From Escherichia coli (GTDB lineage: Bacteria > Pseudomonadota > Gammaproteobacteria > Enterobacterales > Enterobacteriaceae), in the NCBI RefSeq assembly GCF_001677475.2, contig NZ_CP015229.1: 64,000 bases of DNA. One strand, given 5' to 3'. A program made the position numbers and the translations under genes. The notes below the pieces were generated by a model. That model worked only from the letters and a program-made list of their open reading frames with translations, made no database searches and was not told where the DNA came from. This document shows positions 8,693 to 31,805 of this stretch, piece by piece; positions within the stretch are counted from its first letter, which is position 1; every line of letters starts with the position of its first letter.

Positions 8693-10105
8693 ATGGTAGA
8701 TCAGGTAAAAGTCGTTGCCGATGATCAGGCTCCGGCTGAACAGTCGCTACGGCGCAATCTCACAAACCGACATATTCAGCTTATTGCCATTGGCGGTGCC
8801 ATTGGCACAGGGTTGTTTATGGGGTCCGGCAAAACGATTAGCCTTGCCGGGCCGTCGATCATTTTCGTTTATATGATCATTGGTTTTATGCTCTTTTTCG
8901 TGATGCGGGCAATGGGGGAATTGCTGCTTTCGAATCTGGAATACAAATCTTTTAGTGACTTCGCTTCCGATTTACTCGGGCCGTGGGCAGGATATTTCAC
9001 CGGCTGGACTTACTGGTTCTGCTGGGTTGTAACCGGTATGGCAGACGTGGTGGCGATCACGGCTTATGCTCAGTTCTGGTTCCCCGATCTCTCCGACTGG
9101 GTCGCCTCGCTGGCGGTGATAGTGCTGCTGCTGACGCTCAACCTCGCCACCGTGAAAATGTTCGGTGAGATGGAGTTCTGGTTTGCGATGATCAAAATCG
9201 TCGCCATTGTGTCGCTGATTGTCGTCGGCCTGGTCATGGTGGCGATGCACTTTCAGTCACCGACCGGTGTGGAAGCGTCATTCGCGCATTTGTGGAATGA
9301 CGGCGGCTGGTTCCCGAAAGGTTTAAGTGGCTTCTTTGCCGGATTCCAGATAGCGGTTTTCGCTTTCGTGGGGATTGAGCTGGTAGGTACAACAGCTGCG
9401 GAAACCAAAGATCCAGAGAAATCACTGCCACGCGCGATTAACTCAATTCCGATCCGTATCATTATGTTCTACGTCTTCGCGCTGATTGTGATTATGTCCG
9501 TGACGCCGTGGAGTTCGGTAGTCCCGGAGAAAAGCCCGTTTGTTGAACTGTTCGTGTTGGTGGGTCTGCCTGCTGCCGCCAGCGTGATCAACTTTGTGGT
9601 GCTGACCTCTGCCGCTTCTTCCGCTAACAGCGGCGTCTTCTCTACCAGTCGTATGCTGTTTGGTCTGGCGCAGGAAGGTGTGGCACCGAAAGCGTTCGCT
9701 AAACTCTCTAAGCGCGCAGTACCCGCGAAAGGGCTGACCTTCTCTTGTATCTGTCTGCTCGGCGGCGTGGTGATGCTGTATGTGAATCCCAGCGTGATTG
9801 GCGCGTTTACGATGATTACAACCGTTTCCGCGATTCTGTTTATGTTCGTCTGGACGATTATCCTTTGCTCGTACCTGGTGTATCGCAAACAGCGTCCGCA
9901 CCTGCATGAGAAATCAATCTACAAGATGCCGCTCGGCAAGCTGATGTGCTGGGTATGTATGGCATTCTTTGTGTTCGTGGTCGTGCTGCTGACACTGGAA
10001 GATGATACCCGCCAGGCGCTGCTGGTTACCCCGCTGTGGTTTATCGCTCTGGGGCTGGGCTGGTTGTTTATTGGTAAGAAGCGGGCTGCTGAACTGCGGA
10101 AATAA
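8693..10105 (+). CDS. cycA: D-serine/D-alanine/glycine transporter CycA (APC family)
   Basis: 470-aa multi-pass membrane ORF; synteny. Confidence 0.95.
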   Translation: MVDQVKVVADDQAPAEQSLRRNLTNRHIQLIAIGGAIGTGLFMGSGKTISLAGPSIIFVYMIIGFMLFFVMRAMGELLLSNLEYKSFSDFASDLLGPWAGYFTGWTYWFCWVVTGMADVVAITAYAQFWFPDLSDWVASLAVIVLLLTLNLATVKMFGEMEFWFAMIKIVAIVSLIVVGLVMVAMHFQSPTGVEASFAHLWNDGGWFPKGLSGFFAGFQIAVFAFVGIELVGTTAAETKDPEKSLPRAINSIPIRIIMFYVFALIVIMSVTPWSSVVPEKSPFVELFVLVGLPAAASVINFVVLTSAASSANSGVFSTSRMLFGLAQEGVAPKAFAKLSKRAVPAKGLTFSCICLLGGVVMLYVNPSVIGAFTMITTVSAILFMFVWTIILCSYLVYRKQRPHLHEKSIYKMPLGKLMCWVCMAFFVFVVVLLTLEDDTRQALLVTPLWFIALGLGWLFIGKKRAAELRK

Positions 10106-10149: not shown

Positions 10150-10812
10150 TCACTCACCCGCCAGTGCGCGCGGGAACAGCACATTATTTTCCAGACTAAT
10201 GTGATCCATCAGGTCATCAATCAATTCATTGATACCGTTATACATCGCTTTCCAGGTGGTGCAGGCTTCCGGCGGCGGTGTGACATTATTGGTGGTGTGT
10301 TTAATCACTTCCAGCAGTTCGCCCGCTTCATCGTGCTCGCTTTCCATTACGCTGATTGGCCCCATTGCCTGGCTGCCCATGCCTTGTTTGATCATCGGGA
10401 AGAGGATCTGCTCTTCTTTCATCATGTGGCTGGAAAGCTCTTCATGCAGCATAGTCAGGTATTTTGTCAGCCCTTTTGGCACGCTCGGTTTGTCGGCGTG
10501 AACGCGCTCGACTTTAGTCGCTTGCAGGATCAGCTCCGGCAGTTGCTCGCGGTGACGATCGTGGTAGCGCACGATGATATGGTCGATGATTTCTGCCAGC
10601 GGGGCGCTACGCCAGTCTTTCTCAATCGGTTGTTCAGCAAGCTTTGCCAGCTCAGCTTCAATGACCTCAACATCCAGCTCTTTACGTGCCGCCGCACGCG
10701 CCAGCGTTTGCTTACCGCCGCAGCAGTAATCCATATCATATTTACGAAACAGCGCTGAAGCGCGAGGAATAGAGAGCGCCAGTTCACCTAAAGGTTGGTC
10801 GCGATAAGCCAT
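10150..10812 (-). CDS. ytfE: Iron-sulfur cluster repair di-iron protein YtfE (RIC)
   Basis: 220-aa ORF with hemerythrin-like motifs; synteny. Confidence 0.95.
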
Positions 10813-10838
10813 AGCTGATACCTCATTCTTAATAAGAT

Positions 10839-10861
10839 AAGATGTATTTTAAATGCATCTT
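10839..10861. promoter_or_regulatory. NsrR operator (AAGATGTATTT-t-AAATGCATCTT, 11-1-11 inverted repeat) upstream of ytfE
   Basis: Near-perfect match to the recalled NsrR consensus, about 27 bp upstream of the ytfE start codon. Confidence 0.7.
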
Positions 10862-10919
10862 TAAGGCGAATGCTATAACCCTTACGTAGCAGAGGCTTAT
10901 TTAACTCACAGCCAGCATG

Positions 10920-11894
10920 TCAACTTTCTGAGACAGATTCAGTTAAAGGTTTTTCCGGTTTTGCTCTGACTGCAATGACCACGCCAACCACTAACAGCGC
11001 GATACCGCTCAGCGTCATCAGCGGCGGCATTTGCTGGCGGAGTAAAAAGGTGTACAGCAAACCTGCCAGTGTTTCGAAAACAATCAGCGGCCCGAGAATC
11101 ACTGTCGGTAATCGCTGGCTGGCGACGTTCCAGCAGAGTGCGCCGACCCATGAGCAAAGCACGGCTATCGCAATCATCAGACTAATAAACACCAGCGGGC
11201 GGGGGCCAAAGGGTAGGGAGAAGTCCGGCGTTTGCGTATTCAGCCAGTAACAAGCGACGAGATAGCCGATAAGTGAAACCGGCAGTGTGACCAGCGCCTG
11301 CGCCGTTGCCCACATCATCGGATGTTTGTCGGGATTTTCCCGCAGCCAGCGGGCGTTGCGCAGGGCATACCATGCCCAGCAGACCACGGAAACTAACGCC
11401 AGCACGATGCCAGAGGTATAACGTGCCCAGTCAAAATCGGGGAGTCCGTGGTTTAACTCAGCAATATTCACGCACGCCAGGCCGATGCCAATACAAATCA
11501 GTGCCGGGGCGAGTCTTCCCCACGCGAGTTTGCCGTCGCGCTGGCTATAAAGCAGATTGGCAAAGACAGGAATCACCACCGGCAGGGTGCCGATAATCAT
11601 CGTGGAAACAGGCGCGCCAGTACGTTGAATGGCACTGGCAAGGCAGAAGTAATAAATGAGGTTGCCCATCATAGTGAGCATCAAGGCGGTAAGCCAGTCC
11701 CGACGCGCCAACTGACGCAAACGCACGCGTCCCAGCCAGGCAATGGGTAGCGCAATTAACCCTAACGCCAGATAACGCCCCATCGACTGCAACATCGCCG
11801 GGTATTCCGGCACAATCAACGGCCCGACAAAAATAAGCCCCCACATCAACCCTGCTAACAGGGCGTACAGCACGCCGCTAATCATTACTGGCAT
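10920..11894 (-). CDS. ytfF: Inner-membrane EamA/DMT-family transporter YtfF
   Basis: Hydrophobic ORF; synteny; exact start uncertain. Confidence 0.85.
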   Translation of the reverse strand: MPVMISGVLYALLAGLMWGLIFVGPLIVPEYPAMLQSMGRYLALGLIALPIAWLGRVRLRQLARRDWLTALMLTMMGNLIYYFCLASAIQRTGAPVSTMIIGTLPVVIPVFANLLYSQRDGKLAWGRLAPALICIGIGLACVNIAELNHGLPDFDWARYTSGIVLALVSVVCWAWYALRNARWLRENPDKHPMMWATAQALVTLPVSLIGYLVACYWLNTQTPDFSLPFGPRPLVFISLMIAIAVLCSWVGALCWNVASQRLPTVILGPLIVFETLAGLLYTFLLRQQMPPLMTLSGIALLVVGVVIAVRAKPEKPLTESVSES

Positions 11895-13450: not shown

Positions 13451-15403
13451 TTACTTACTCAAATCCACCTGATAAATCGCAAACCCGATATCATCGGTCG
13501 CGACTTTATTCATCGGATATTGCCCTTTCTCTTTAATAAACGCTGCGGCTTTATCTGATGGAGAGGTTTCGAAACGGATATCCAGTTTCTTATCGCCAGC
13601 AATCGGTGCTAAACGCCAGTTGTTATCTGCCGCCGGGTGAATTTCCCCCGCACGTTTCGACTCATCAGCAATCCACGCTGCCAGCACCGAGCGGTTCTCA
13701 TCCGGTGAAGCAAAAGCGATATGGCTGTCGCCCGTACCAGCAAATTTGCCGCCGTAAGCGCGATAGTTATTGGTGGCAACGAGGAACATGGCGTTCGGAT
13801 CAATGGGTTTACCGTTAAAGGTCAGGTTCTTAATCCGCTCTGCATTGGCATTAACCACCTGACATTCACCGTCATAACGGGCGGGTTGGGTAACATCAAT
13901 CTGATAATTCACACCATCAATAACATCAAAGTTATAAGTGCGGAAACCATCCCAGTTGATGAGTGACTGTGGTTTCGTGCTGTTAGGATCAATCTGGTTA
14001 AACTGTCCGGCGGAGCACTCCAGCCACTCTTTCACCTCTTTACCGCTGGCTTTCACCACAATCAGCGTATTGGGGTAGAGATAAAGATCGGCGGCATTAC
14101 GGAAGGTCAACTGGCCTTTTTCCACCTCCACATAGCTTGCCGGGTCATTTTTGCGACCACCAACTTTAAACGGTGCGGCAGCTGAAAGCACCGGCAGTTT
14201 TGCCAGATCCGGATCGCCCTGAATGTAATGTTCGACATACGCTTTTTGCGCGTTGTTCACGACTTGCACGGTCGGATCGTCCTGCACCAGCGCCAGATAG
14301 CTATACATATTGTCGGCAGATTTACCGATTGGCTTGCTGACAAACTGGCGTGTGGCATCGTGATCGGCTTTGAGTGTTTCTACCAGCTTGCTATCTTCCG
14401 CCGCGAGGGATTTTTTATTAGCGATGTCGTAAATCGGCCGTGCTTCCGCTTTCGCCTGCATCACCTGCCATTTACCGCTGTCATTACTGAGTTACAAGTC
14501 GACCACACCAAGATGATCGCCCCACATGCCCGGCATTACCGCCGGAACACCATTCAGCGTGCCTTTCGCGATATCAGCCCCTTCGATATCAGCAAAATCT
14601 TTACCTGGGAAAACGGCGTGAGCATGGCCAAACATAATGGCGTTAACGCCCGGAATTTCACTGAGGTAATAAACTGAGTTTTCCGCCATCACTTTATACG
14701 GATCGGCAGACAGCCCGGAATGCGCCAGAACGACAACGAGATCGGCACCTTTCTCACGCATTTCAGGCACGTATTTGCGCACAGTTTCTGTTATATCGTT
14801 AACGGTGACTTTGCCGGACAAATTGGCTTTATCCCACCCCATAATCTGCGGCGGCACCACGCCAATATAGCCAATCTTTAACGTCTGTTTTTTTCCGTCT
14901 TTATCGACCACTTCGGTGTCTTTAATTAAATACGGTGTAAACATGGGCTGTTTGGTTTTTGCGTCGATGACGTTGGCATTTACATAAGGGAATTTCGCTC
15001 CCGCCAGCGCATTTTTCAGGTAATCCAGACCGTAGTTAAACTCGTGGTTGCCAAGCGTGCCGACGGTATAGTCCAGCGTATTTAATGCCTTATAGACCGG
15101 GTGAATATCGCCTGCTTTTAAACCTTTCGCCGACATGTAATCTGCCAGCGGACTCCCCTGAATCAAATCGCCGTTATCGACCAGTACGCTGTTTTTCACT
15201 TCATTGCGGGCATCGTTAATCAGGCTTGCGGTACGTACCAGTCCGAATTTTTCCGTAGCGGTGTCTTTGTAATAATCGAAATCCATCATGTTGCTATGCA
15301 GATCAGTGGTTTCCATGATACGCAGATCGACCGTCGCTGCATTTACACTGGCGGCAATCAGCGTGGCCAGGAGCGTTGCGCTAAACTTAATCATCAGGGA
15401 CAT
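13451..15403 (-). pseudogene. cpdB: cpdB (2',3'-cyclic-nucleotide 2'-phosphodiesterase / 3'-nucleotidase) interrupted by an in-frame TAA
   Basis: Two same-frame ORFs (14492..15403 and 13451..14464) separated only by a stop codon at 14492..14494 (minus strand); together they span the full-length protein. Confidence 0.85.
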
Positions 15404-15583
15404 CCTTTTATCATCGGGAATACGAAAGAAAAGGGAGAATAAACGTCTTACTTATAGAACAGTGAAGAATGCCACAATTTTACGCTTTGAAAATGATGAC
15501 ACTATCACAGTTGGCGCATTCATTAACGATAGGGTATAAGTAAAACAATAAGTTAACACCGCTCACAGAGACGAGGTGGAGAA

Positions 15584-18622: not shown

Positions 18623-18683
18623 CCAAAGTGCTATGCAGTAATAAGACGGCTCCTGATTCAGGAGCCGTTGATGTTTCTGGGGG

Positions 18684-20027: not shown

Positions 20028-20204
20028 ATCTTATCCGACCTTTCAGGCCAGATCCTCGGAAGGGGAAGTTGATTAATTTGTGTGAAATACACATTGAAAG
20101 CCGATTCGAAGAAAGTGAACCGGCATTTTCAGTGGCTAGTATAGCGTAAGGTACTGTAAAGCCGCCAGAGTGTTAAAATTCAGACTGCTGATAAATGAAA
20201 AACT

Positions 20205-27084: not shown

Positions 27085-27371
27085 TGCGATGTATCTCGCG
27101 ATTTTTTTTGTAACTTTCCCATCTTTTGCTTTTCTCTCCGAGCCGCTTTCCATATCTGCAATCGCATAAAAAACTCTGCTGGCGTTCACAAATGTGCAGG
27201 GGTAAAACGGGGGCACGCTTTGAACGGTGAGTATGAGTGAGGTCGGCTAACTTCCAGCAAGTGGCTATGAACAGCAAAATGGTGGTCGAGTTTAGCTTGT
27301 TCTTACCGTTCAAGCCTTTCAACTGCTGAAAATAATAATAGTGGAGTAGATAGTTTATAAATTGCGGGCAT

Positions 27372-28266: not shown

Positions 28267-28677
28267 ATGTGGAAACGCTTACTTGTAGTCTCTGCAGTCT
28301 CGGCAGCCATGTCGTCTATGGCGTTGGCCGCTCCTTTAACCGTAGGATTTTCGCAGGTCGGATCGGAATCCGGCTGGCGCGCAGCAGAAACCAATGTGGC
28401 GAAAAGTGAGGCCGAAAAACGCGGAATTACGTTGAAAATCGCCGATGGTCAGCAAAAGCAGGAAAACCAGATTAAAGCGGTACGTTCCTTCGTTGCACAA
28501 GGGGTGGATGCGATCTTTATCGCTCCGGTGGTTGCGACGGGTTGGGAACCGGTATTAAAAGAGGCGAAAGATGCCGAAATCCCGGTCTTTTTGCTCGATC
28601 GTTCCATCGATGTGAAAGACAAATCTCTCTATATGACCACTGTTACTGCTGACAACATCCTCGAAGGTAAGTTATGA
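28267..28677 (+). pseudogene. ytfQ: ytfQ 5' fragment (galactofuranose-binding periplasmic protein), truncated by an IS insertion
   Basis: Signal peptide and N-terminal 135 residues up to ...ILEGKL, then a stop created at the IS junction. Confidence 0.85.
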
Positions 28678-28765
28678 GACGACAATAACTCAGTCCGCCT
28701 GGCGCCGATTATTCTGGCCGGTTTTGTAACCTGAGTGTCATTTACATGATCCAACAGGAAATGGC

Positions 28766-30265
28766 GTGACGCTCAATACTTCTCAGGTCAGTTACTATAT
28801 GACTCAGCGTAAGAAAGGTATAACTCAGCATATCTCGGCCATGAAGGCTGGTATCTCAGTCCGTTCTGGTCGTCGGATCGAAAAAGGAGAGTGGGCAAAA
28901 AACAGTGTTCGGCACTGGCGCACACGCAAAGATCCTCTGGAAGCTGTGTGGGACAGCATGCTTGTTCCTCTGTTGAAAGAGAGGCCGGCTCTGACACCAA
29001 CAACTCTACTGGAGATGCTACAGGATAAATATCCCGGCCAGTACCCCAACAGCCTTCGAAGAACAATGCAACGGCGGGTTCGCGAATGGAAACTACAGTA
29101 TGGTACAGAGCAGGAGGTCATGTTCCGCCAGCAACATCAGCCCGGCCTGCGAGGCCTGTCGGACTTTACTGAACTGAAAGGTGTAGTTGTCACCATCGCC
29201 GGTAAGTTGTTGGCGCATAAGTTGTATCACTTCCGTCTGGAATGGAGCCACTGGAGCTGGATGCGGGTTGTTCTGGGTGGTGAGAGCTTCTCTGCTCTGG
29301 CTGAAGGCCTGCAGGAAGCCCTCGGACAACTGGGCGGAGTGCCGGTAGAACATAAAACGGACAGCCTGAGGGCAGCATGGAAACAACAGGGCGAAGATGG
29401 ACGCCGCGAGCTGACTGAGCGTTATGCTACTCTCTGTCAGCACTACGGAATGCAGGGCGTACACAATAATGCCGGTCGGGGCCACGAAAATGGCTCGGTT
29501 GAAAGTGCCCACGGACATCTGAAAAGGCGTATCTGTCAGGCGCTGATACTGCGGGGCAGTAACGACTTCAGCACCATAGAAGAATATCAGGCCTTCATCA
29601 CTCAGCAGGTTATGCGGCACAACCGTAACAATCAGGATCTGGTCAAGGAAGAACGTCTTCATCTGAAACCGCTGCCGCTTCGTCGCAGTGCTGACTATGA
29701 TGAGCTGACTGTGAGGGTTAGTCGCAGCAGTACCATCAATGTGAAGCACGTCGTCTACAGCGTACCTTCCCGGCTTGTAGGTCAACTGTTACGGGTCAGG
29801 TTATGGGACGATCGTCTGAGCTGTTACGTTGGCAGCAGCGAGGTCATGAGCTGCCCTCGCGTCAGACCAGAAAAAGGGAAGACGCGGGCCCGTCGTATCG
29901 ACTTCCGACATGTGATCGACAGTCTGGCAAAAAAGCCCGGTGCGTTCTGCCATGCAACGCTGAGAAATGACATCCTGCCGGACGATGAATGGCGGAGGCT
30001 GTGGCGTCGCTTATGTAATCATCTGGAGCCCGATATGGCAGGAAGGCTGATGGTACATGCCCTGAAACTGGCTGCAGGATACGACGATATCTCAGTCGTG
30101 GCAAAAGGTATGGAGCAGATGCTGAATACCCCGGGAAACGTGGATCTGCACCGGCTGATGCGCTTCCTGGGTATAAAAGAAAAGGCGTTGCCGGTAGTCA
30201 ATGTGATACAGCATAACCTGAGCAGTTATGAGCAACTACTGCGTGGCAAGGGAGGTTCGCAGTGA
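28766..30265 (+). CDS. istA: IS21-family transposase IstA
   Basis: 499-aa ORF (GTG start) with an N-terminal HTH-like region; followed by overlapping istB. Confidence 0.8.
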   Translation: MTLNTSQVSYYMTQRKKGITQHISAMKAGISVRSGRRIEKGEWAKNSVRHWRTRKDPLEAVWDSMLVPLLKERPALTPTTLLEMLQDKYPGQYPNSLRRTMQRRVREWKLQYGTEQEVMFRQQHQPGLRGLSDFTELKGVVVTIAGKLLAHKLYHFRLEWSHWSWMRVVLGGESFSALAEGLQEALGQLGGVPVEHKTDSLRAAWKQQGEDGRRELTERYATLCQHYGMQGVHNNAGRGHENGSVESAHGHLKRRICQALILRGSNDFSTIEEYQAFITQQVMRHNRNNQDLVKEERLHLKPLPLRRSADYDELTVRVSRSSTINVKHVVYSVPSRLVGQLLRVRLWDDRLSCYVGSSEVMSCPRVRPEKGKTRARRIDFRHVIDSLAKKPGAFCHATLRNDILPDDEWRRLWRRLCNHLEPDMAGRLMVHALKLAAGYDDISVVAKGMEQMLNTPGNVDLHRLMRFLGIKEKALPVVNVIQHNLSSYEQLLRGKGGSQ

Positions 30266-31017
30266 GCAATATCCATCACCTTGAACATAGCCTGCGTAAA
30301 CTACGCCTGACACGAGTTGGAGCTGAATGGCACGCTCTGGAAAAACGAGCGCTGGCAGAAGGCTGGACACCATCGCGCTATCTTCTGACGCTATGCAATG
30401 AAGAACTCCTGTGGCGCGAGAGTGAAAAACTGCGTCGTTATAAAAAGGAGGCCCGGTTGCCAGTTGCCAAAACGCTGAGCGAATACGACTTCAGTCAGGT
30501 GCCGGAACTGAATGGAGCTCAGTTCCGGCAACTCTGTGAAACGACAGACTGGGTTGATGCAGGAGAAAACGTTCTGCTGTTCGGAGCCAGCGGGTTGGGG
30601 AAAAGCCATCTGGCGGCAGCGATCGTGGATGGCGTAGTAGGTCAGGGCTACCGGGCCCGGTTCTACAGCGCAGGAGAGCTGTTGCAGGAACTACGTAAAG
30701 CCAGAGCTCAGTTGAAACTGAATGAGCTGCTACTGAAACTGGATCGCTACCGGGTGATAGTGGTGGATGATCTTGGCTATGTCAAACGCGATAGTGCCGA
30801 AACGGGTGTGCTGTTCGAGTTAATAGCGCATCGCTATGAACGTGGGAGCCTGGTGATAACCAGTAACCATCCGTTCAGCATGTGGGGCAGCATCTTCGTG
30901 GATGAGACTATGGCGGTGGCTGCGGCAGACAGGCTGATCCATCACGGATATATGTTCGAACTGAAAGGGGAAAGCTACAGGAAAAAGACAGCGAAGGCAG
31001 TAACAAGCGCGACTTGA
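30262..31017 (+). CDS. istB: IS21-family helper ATPase IstB
   Basis: 251-aa ORF with Walker A GASGLGKSHLA; start overlaps the istA stop. Confidence 0.85.
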   Translation: MSNIHHLEHSLRKLRLTRVGAEWHALEKRALAEGWTPSRYLLTLCNEELLWRESEKLRRYKKEARLPVAKTLSEYDFSQVPELNGAQFRQLCETTDWVDAGENVLLFGASGLGKSHLAAAIVDGVVGQGYRARFYSAGELLQELRKARAQLKLNELLLKLDRYRVIVVDDLGYVKRDSAETGVLFELIAHRYERGSLVITSNHPFSMWGSIFVDETMAVAAADRLIHHGYMFELKGESYRKKTAKAVTSAT

Positions 31018-31084
31018 TGTCGCCCTGAAGGGTGCGGCCAGTATAGTTGGCGCGAGTCGGCAAAACTAGTTGACGTCTAATAGT

Positions 31085-31639
31085 AAGTTGATTGGTGACT
31101 GGCTGGTAAAAGAAGTCAACGGCAAACCGTGTAACGTGGTTGAGTTGCAGGGGACGGTTGGGGCAAGCGTTGCCATTGACCGTAAAAAAGGCTTTGCCGA
31201 AGCCATTAAGAGTGCGCCAAACATCAAAATCATCCGCTCACAGTCCGGTGACTTCACCCGTAGTAAAGGCAAAGAAGTGATGGAGAGCTTTATCAAAGCG
31301 GAAAACAACGGCAAAAACATCTGCATGGTTTACGCCCATAACGACGACATGGTGATTGGCGCAATTCAGGCAATTAAAGAAGCGGGACTGAAACCGGGCA
31401 AAGATATCCTCACGGGTTCCATTGACGGCGTGCCGGATATCTACAAAGCGATGATGGATGGCGAAGCGAACGCCAGCGTTGAATTGACGCCGAACATGGC
31501 AGGCCCCGCTTTTGACGCGCTGGAGAAATACAAAAAAGACGGCACTATGCCTGAAAAGTTGACCCTGACCAAATCCACCCTTTACCTGCCTGATACTGCA
31601 AAAGAAGAGTTAGAGAAGAAGAAAAATATGGGGTATTGA
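31085..31639 (+). pseudogene. ytfQ: ytfQ 3' fragment
   Basis: Reading frame resumes at ...KLIGDWLVKEVNGKPCNVVELQG... and runs to the native stop; the track ORF begins at a TTG inside the IS end (31070). Confidence 0.85.
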
Positions 31640-31649
31640 GGGACATCAA

Positions 31650-31805
31650 TACCTGATGCCGACTTGTACGCCGCCGGATAAGGCGTTTATGCCGCATCCG
31701 GCGGTTGTGTGCGGATGCCTGATGCGACGCTGGCGCGTCTTATCATGCCTACGAGTTCGATACTCTGTGTAGGCCGGATAAGGCGTTCACGCCGCATCCG
31801 GCAGT
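31650..31805. repeat. REP/BIME cluster (at least three palindromic units)
   Basis: Repeated GCCGGATAAGGCG...GCCGCATCCGGC-type units between ytfQ and ytfR. Confidence 0.75.

Follow-up and report, generated by a model that had tools for sequence, protein, structure and literature searches.

The ytfE locus and its upstream repeat

An inverted repeat lies at 10839-10861, just upstream of the minus-strand ytfE gene, in the 64,000-nucleotide stretch of Escherichia coli DNA analysed here (contig NZ_CP015229.1; the whole stretch is referred to as the window). The question raised by this locus is whether the repeat is the operator through which NsrR controls ytfE, and how it is positioned with respect to the ytfE promoter. 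We are very confident that the repeat is an NsrR operator at the ytfE promoter, and nothing in the evidence contradicts that reading. The site has been described before as the NsrR operator of ytfE and occurs here in its K-12 form, which makes it textbook biology and not a discovery.

The regulated gene occupies 10150-10812 on the minus strand and encodes a di-iron RIC protein of 220 aa, which scores 416.7 bits against the NCBIfam equivalog NF008221 (YtfE; cut-off 254) and is annotated as ytfE in 5415 E. coli genomes. Its neighbours are cycA (8693-10105, plus strand) and ytfF (10920-11894, minus strand), the order cycA-ytfE-ytfF-qorB being that of E. coli, and from ytfA to valS the window is collinear with K-12 at ~97-98% identity. 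By sequence identity, the source is a somewhat divergent Escherichia lineage, since the best complete E. coli genome match over a 12-kb stretch reaches only 97.7%; the nearest GTDB representative is likewise 97.7% identical, and E. albertii 92.5%. A tblastn search of the 64-kb window with a K-12 NsrR query found no nsrR (best E-value 7.6). This result is uninformative because in K-12 nsrR lies ~25 kb upstream of ytfE, outside the equivalent interval.

Upstream of the gene, a Shine-Dalgarno sequence GAGG is found at 10821-10824 on the minus strand, 8 nt before the ATG, followed at a distance of 26 nt from the ATG (10812) by the end of the repeat, which therefore spans -49 to -27 relative to that codon. 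The plus strand of the window reads AAGATGTATTTTAAATGCATCTT at 10839-10861 and the strand of ytfE reads AAGATGCATTTAAAATACATCTT. The inverted-repeat search returned this as the sole inverted repeat within 10700-11000, with arms of 11 nt each (10839-10849 and 10851-10861) that are 91% complementary (10/11) around a 1-nt spacer. The almost perfect 11-1-11 repeat proposed by the initial annotation is thus borne out, with its coordinates exact, and its geometry is that of NsrR sites as defined, after Partridge 2009, in PMC5320621. The lone mismatch between the arms falls on the y/r position, which is degenerate in the published consensuses (gATGyAT-N5-ATrCATc, PMC1274295). With a half-site matrix, the promoter-distal half-site AAGATGCATTT (10851-10861, minus strand) scores 15.5 of 15.57 bits and is the top-scoring half-site of the whole 64-kb window, and the promoter-proximal half-site (10839-10849, plus strand), which reads AAGATGTATTT outward from the centre, scores 14.68 bits.

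The palindrome geometry alone is statistically unremarkable: after shuffling, a 64-kb window holds on average 0.5 11-1-11 repeats with ≤1 mismatch, and 40% of shuffles contain at least one. The rarity of the palindrome was accordingly dropped as an argument for the operator. The only other such repeat in the window (ACGGCTCCTGATTCAGGAGCCGT, 18646-18668) is unrelated in sequence, and it is probably a bidirectional terminator hairpin, as it is GC-rich and lies between the convergent ytfK and paeA homologues.

Agreement with known NsrR sites

The identity of the sequence, and not its symmetry, carries the assignment. The pattern AAGATGYATTTNAAATRCATCTT, searched with ≤3 mismatches, has a single match in the window, which is the operator, and none in 100 shuffles. 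A symmetric NsrR weight matrix was built from 25 other distinct published CFT073 sites, the ytfE site being left out to avoid circularity, and with this leave-one-out matrix the operator scores 30.58 of 31.57 bits, above all 25 training sites, the next-highest being hcp at 26.5 bits. The picture is the same when only ChIP-positive sites make up the matrix (29.63 bits). Among 200 shuffled windows, the top score averaged 12.55 and peaked at 22.25, and the runner-up 23-bp match in the window itself reached 16.8 bits. In addition, the operator agrees with the consensus that PMC1274295 derived independently by comparative genomics, at each of its 14 specified positions.

The initial annotation had named a direct comparison with curated NsrR sites as the check that could refute it, and the assignment came through this comparison. 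The ytfE operator of K-12 MG1655 (upstream of b4209) is identical at 23/23 positions, stands at the same ATG distance and has the same flanks, cycA and ytfF; the 5 substitutions between K-12 and the window in the ~180 bp compared are confined to the flanks of the operator, none falling inside it. The CFT073 site AAGATGCATTTAAAATGCATCTT agrees at 22/23 positions, with the same geometry and position, and differs at position 17, where CFT073 has a G that makes the palindrome perfect whereas the window and K-12 have an A. Both bases are common across genera, and this position is the degenerate r of the published consensus (PMC1274295). The CFT073 site is the best of 27 predicted 11-1-11 NsrR sites (ln P = -25.13; PMC5320621 Table 4) and lies under a ChIP-seq peak with its summit 50 bp upstream of the start codon (PMC5320621), which places the summit (-50) one base outside the operator.

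Among other E. coli targets, the hmp, hcp and ygbA operators are likewise 11-1-11 repeats controlled by NsrR and share 18-19 of 23 positions with the ytfE site, but are more degenerate (18-26 bits vs 30.6). Also, hmp and hcp are co-regulated by FNR (PMC5320621, PMC1274295), whereas consensus searches found no second regulator site at ytfE. A more distant comparison is offered by the crystal structure of Streptomyces coelicolor [4Fe-4S]-NsrR on the hmpA1 operator (PMC9338935), a protein of the same family that binds an imperfect palindrome as a dimer and in an NO-labile manner. Its DNA-contacting residues differ, however, and it does not bind EcNsrR-specific sequences (PMC9338935), so that the structure can model the binding mode only and not base recognition. 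The type 1 operators of IscR are likewise conserved inverted repeats at which an Fe-S Rrf2 dimer represses, but their sequence is different, the IscR type 1 consensus showing >8 mismatches in the ytfE upstream region.

Several weaker matches elsewhere in the window were inspected. The runner-up at 59319-59341 (AAAATTCAATTTATATGGATGAT, 16.8 bits) was considered as a second full NsrR operator and rejected; it lies between argI and rraB, an intergenic region in which one would look for AT-rich ArgR boxes, and it is probably not an NsrR site, given this location and a score within the shuffle range. A lone NsrR-type half-site AACATGCATTA (12.1 bits) is found at 54948-54958 between the divergent bdcA and bdcR homologues, whose intergenic region spans ~54925-54996. 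The Reg-Seq study reports a known NsrR binding location at bdcA-bdcR that regulates both promoters, and the window therefore has a second NsrR target, of the half-site type. The proximal half-site AAGATGTATTT (14.7 bits) recurs without change at 60129-60139 on the minus strand, as a lone half-site within the coding sequence of the yjgM homologue. Altogether 10 half-sites of at least 12 bits are present in the window against 3.1 ± 2.0 in shuffles, an excess that may reflect AT-rich intergenic composition.

Conservation across Enterobacteriaceae

A scan of one genome per species gave 395 stretches that encode YtfE. The best 80 of these 395 were retained, and together with the window they make up the 81 sequences referred to below. 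The 80 include Escherichia, Enterobacter, Citrobacter, Klebsiella, Raoultella, Kluyvera, Kosakonia, Lelliottia, Buttiauxella, Cedecea, Trabulsiella, Yokenella, Phytobacter and Pluralibacter, among others. Taking the best matrix match in the 200 bp upstream of ytfE, the operator was found in 80/80 of these best 80 of 395 loci, at 23-31 bits, and its end lies 24-27 nt from the ATG in every one of them; 64 of the 81 sequences have a distance of exactly 26 nt. A position that is constant within 3 nt across all 80 loci examined, the best 80 of 395, is one point that the present analysis adds. There are 26 distinct operator variants, and the changes cluster at positions that the matrix tolerates. 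In the alignment of the 130 nt upstream of ytfE, the 23 operator columns average 1.80 bits per column, compared with 1.42 in the leader and 1.17, 0.67 and 0.44 in successive upstream segments; the Shine-Dalgarno GAGG is invariant. No other element upstream of ytfE is under as strong a constraint as the operator, and its sequence, near-consensus match, position and deep conservation are direct observations.

Promoter elements and alternative explanations

The position of the operator relative to the promoter was approached through candidate elements. A strict consensus scan found no sigma-70 promoter in 10700-11000, and a weighted -35/spacer/-10 scan over the 81 species, set against a shuffle null of 9.0 ± 2.0, gave three recurrent -10 candidates, none of them above that null, so that all three stand as candidates. 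One putative -10 is TAAAAT on the minus strand at the operator centre (10846-10851): the central hexamer is TAAAAT in 55 sequences, TAATAT in 24 and TATAAT in 2, so that a -10-like TAnnnT is kept at the operator centre in 81/81, a further addition of this work. Another is TATCTT (10834-10839, minus strand), starting at the last base of the operator, the equivalent of which is TATATT in most other genera within a highly conserved TTATATT; TATCTT/TATATT is the commonest top-scoring sigma-70 candidate (30/81). The remaining hexamer, TAGCAT (10870-10875, minus strand), possibly serves the central -10 as a weak -35, 18 bp away, or is itself a third -10, and belongs to a partly conserved TAkCnT pattern 7-8 nt upstream of the operator. 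All three candidate -10 hexamers thus lie inside the operator or within 8 nt of it.

Primers for the EDL933 PytfE reporter (PMC7336997), mapped onto the window, delimit an equivalent 181-bp fragment at 10802-10982 on the minus strand, and the ytfE promoter must fall inside it. The initial annotation had placed the operator over the ytfE promoter, and this holds in substance, though not to the single base, as all three candidates put the operator in the region covered by RNA polymerase. Text searches of papers other than the original ytfE/NsrR studies retrieved neither a published start site nor a -10 element for ytfE, and ytfE is not listed in the ROSE supplement. In the primary paper by Bodenmiller and Spiro (2006), the repeat reportedly overlaps the -10 element.

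The exact steric mode would be one of -10 occlusion, as opposed to blocking of the -35/spacer region or of the start site. The promoter could instead lie upstream, with TAGCAT as its -10, and NsrR would then block at or just downstream of the start. We regard this arrangement as rather unlikely. TAkCnT is the top sigma-70 candidate in 9 of the 81 species, T1, A2 and T6 are conserved in many genera, and the literature searches retrieved no start site; however, several genera have a degenerate form of the hexamer (TAGCGC, TTCCCT), the -35 region belonging to it is not conserved, the primary paper reportedly sets the repeat over the -10, and the central hexamer keeps TAnnnT throughout the 81 sequences.

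A further alternative would be that the palindrome is bound by another regulator, such as FNR, Fur, IscR, NarL/NarP or CRP, its likeness to NsrR sites being secondary. The reported derepression of ytfE in fnr and fur mutants (PMC9268430) and the fact that IscR is an NsrR paralogue of the same Rrf2 family speak for this, but consensus searches of the ytfE upstream region for FNR, Fur, IscR type 1, CRP, NarL/P and NorR gave no convincing match. The closest FNR-like sequence departs from the consensus at 4 of 10 specified positions, the Fur box and IscR type 1 comparisons each give >8 mismatches and CRP gives 3, and only single heptamers of the NarL type, with 1 mismatch each, were seen. The review that reports the mutant phenotypes recognises no Fur or FNR sites at ytfE and regards the effect as indirect (PMC9268430). 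With the operator nearly equal to the NsrR consensus as well, binding of the palindrome by another regulator instead appears very improbable. Still less probability, close to none, attaches to a reading without operator function, in which the repeat is an AT-rich palindrome that arose by chance or forms a hairpin in the ytfE leader RNA. The frequency of chance repeats given above is what favours it. Against it, the sequence-specific match was never reached in shuffles, the operator is kept at a fixed ATG distance in all of the best 80 loci out of 395, and a single-nucleotide spacer is too short for the loop of a hairpin; conservation and motif score effectively refute it. An RNA hairpin from the palindrome was also tried as a fold and rejected, as the minimum-energy structure leaves the arms unpaired and is weak (-6.3 kcal/mol, z = -1.78).

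Nitric oxide-responsive control of ytfE

NsrR is an Rrf2-family, Fe-S-containing and NO-sensitive repressor (PMC5320621, PMC1274295, PMC9052748), described as a [4Fe-4S] repressor that is inactivated by NO (PMC9052748), and it recognises the 11-1-11 repeat (PMC5320621). Direct NsrR control of ytfE is documented (PMC9268430), and the gene belongs to the core of the NsrR regulon (PMC5320621, PMC1274295, PMC9268430, PMC2884951); a personal communication quoted in PMC1274295 holds that the inverted repeat is involved in NsrR repression of ytfE, and binding of NsrR to the K-12 ytfE promoter in ChIP-chip is mentioned, as a cited result, in PMC5320621. On the side of expression, ytfE is up 544-fold in a Salmonella nsrR mutant (PMC2884951) and 69.6-fold in CFT073 given a physiological NO source (PMC5320621), and a PytfE reporter that runs from the ytfF 3' end to the ytfE start codon suffices for tight repression when NO is absent and for strong induction when an NO donor is added (PMC7336997). 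The expectation of NO-responsive NsrR control is well supported by this literature. For the present strain, NsrR occupancy and NsrR/NO-dependent expression would follow by analogy with these identical or 22/23-identical sites.

The mechanism would then run as follows. Without NO, holo-NsrR, an Fe-S homodimer, would bind the 23-bp palindrome with one monomer on each 11-bp half-site. Because the operator at -49 to -27 would overlap or abut every plausible -10 hexamer, bound NsrR would exclude or block RNA polymerase and ytfE would be almost silent. On exposure, NO would nitrosylate the NsrR cluster, NsrR would leave the DNA, and ytfE would be derepressed by one to two orders of magnitude. Given its intact near-consensus operator, the strain very probably retains the canonical NO-responsive switch at ytfE, the same switch that others have already used as an in vivo NO reporter (PytfE).

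The description of ytfE as an Fe-S repair gene agrees with its standard annotation as a RIC protein, but that role is contested, a 2022 study having argued that the physiological activity of YtfE is that of a nitrite reductase, and that the NO it makes goes on to derepress promoters under NsrR control (PMC9052748). The operator assignment is independent of which role applies, Fe-S repair or nitrite reductase. As YtfE may itself make NO from nitrite (PMC9052748), its control by NsrR could give rise to a positive feedback loop, a thought drawn from the literature and not a finding of this analysis.

A conserved block upstream of the operator

A second conserved block just upstream of the operator is also added by the alignment. 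In the window it reads AAGGGTTATA at 10874-10883 on the minus strand, 13-22 nt upstream of the operator, and its consensus AAGGGkTATA is near-invariant across the 81 enterobacterial ytfE upstream sequences. In many genera a C-run further upstream could base-pair with the block (CCCC-GAAA-GGGG, in some cases with the compensatory CCTC/GAGG), and the block is conserved as sequence even where the possible hairpin partner is not, as in Escherichia. A reading as the ytfF terminator hairpin was rejected: the register shifts between genera, the stem is only 3 bp in Escherichia and no T-run follows. The consensus searches of the ytfE upstream region gave nothing that explains AAGGGkTATA. We tentatively suggest, without attaching much likelihood to it, that the block is a further cis element in the control of ytfE, not described before. 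An activator might bind it, or the factor behind the "indirect" FNR and Fur effects, or it could be an unusual -35/UP-type element; the latter, if true, would explain derepression of at least 70-fold from a promoter without a recognisable -35.

Other features of the window

Beyond the ytfE region, the window departs from K-12 in several places. The segment 1-6522 has no counterpart in the K-12 interval 4419000-4492000 and carries five minus-strand genes, for an FAD-dependent oxidoreductase, a CoA transferase, an enoyl-CoA hydratase, a sugar-phosphate isomerase-like TIM barrel protein and a short-chain dehydrogenase; of 5426 complete E. coli genomes, 3168 have this cluster, but at only ~94% identity, vs 97-98% elsewhere in the window. 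Between ytfP and ppa (27209-27353), the K-12 chpS-chpB toxin-antitoxin pair (~650 bp) is missing and ~143 bp of unrelated sequence stands in its place. Between ppa and ytfQ lies a 2.4-kb insertion relative to K-12 (28673-31085) with two ORFs, one of 499 aa with a Mu-transposase C-terminal domain and one for an IstB-like ATPase of 251 aa, which looks like an IS21-family element. The yjgL-argI-rraB segment (56971-59867) is 94.8% identical to K-12 vs 97-98% elsewhere, contains an internal 196-bp repeat-like secondary match and may be a recombination patch.

The search for tRNA genes found none in the 64-kb window. Four Rfam matches in the window reach the gathering score, namely the sRNA ES239 (15395-15517, plus strand), the sRNA STnc450 (20089-20146, minus strand), naRNA4, a nucleoid-associated RNA/REP-type element (31672-31749, plus strand), and the magnesium riboswitch of the mgtA leader (48289-48404, plus strand).
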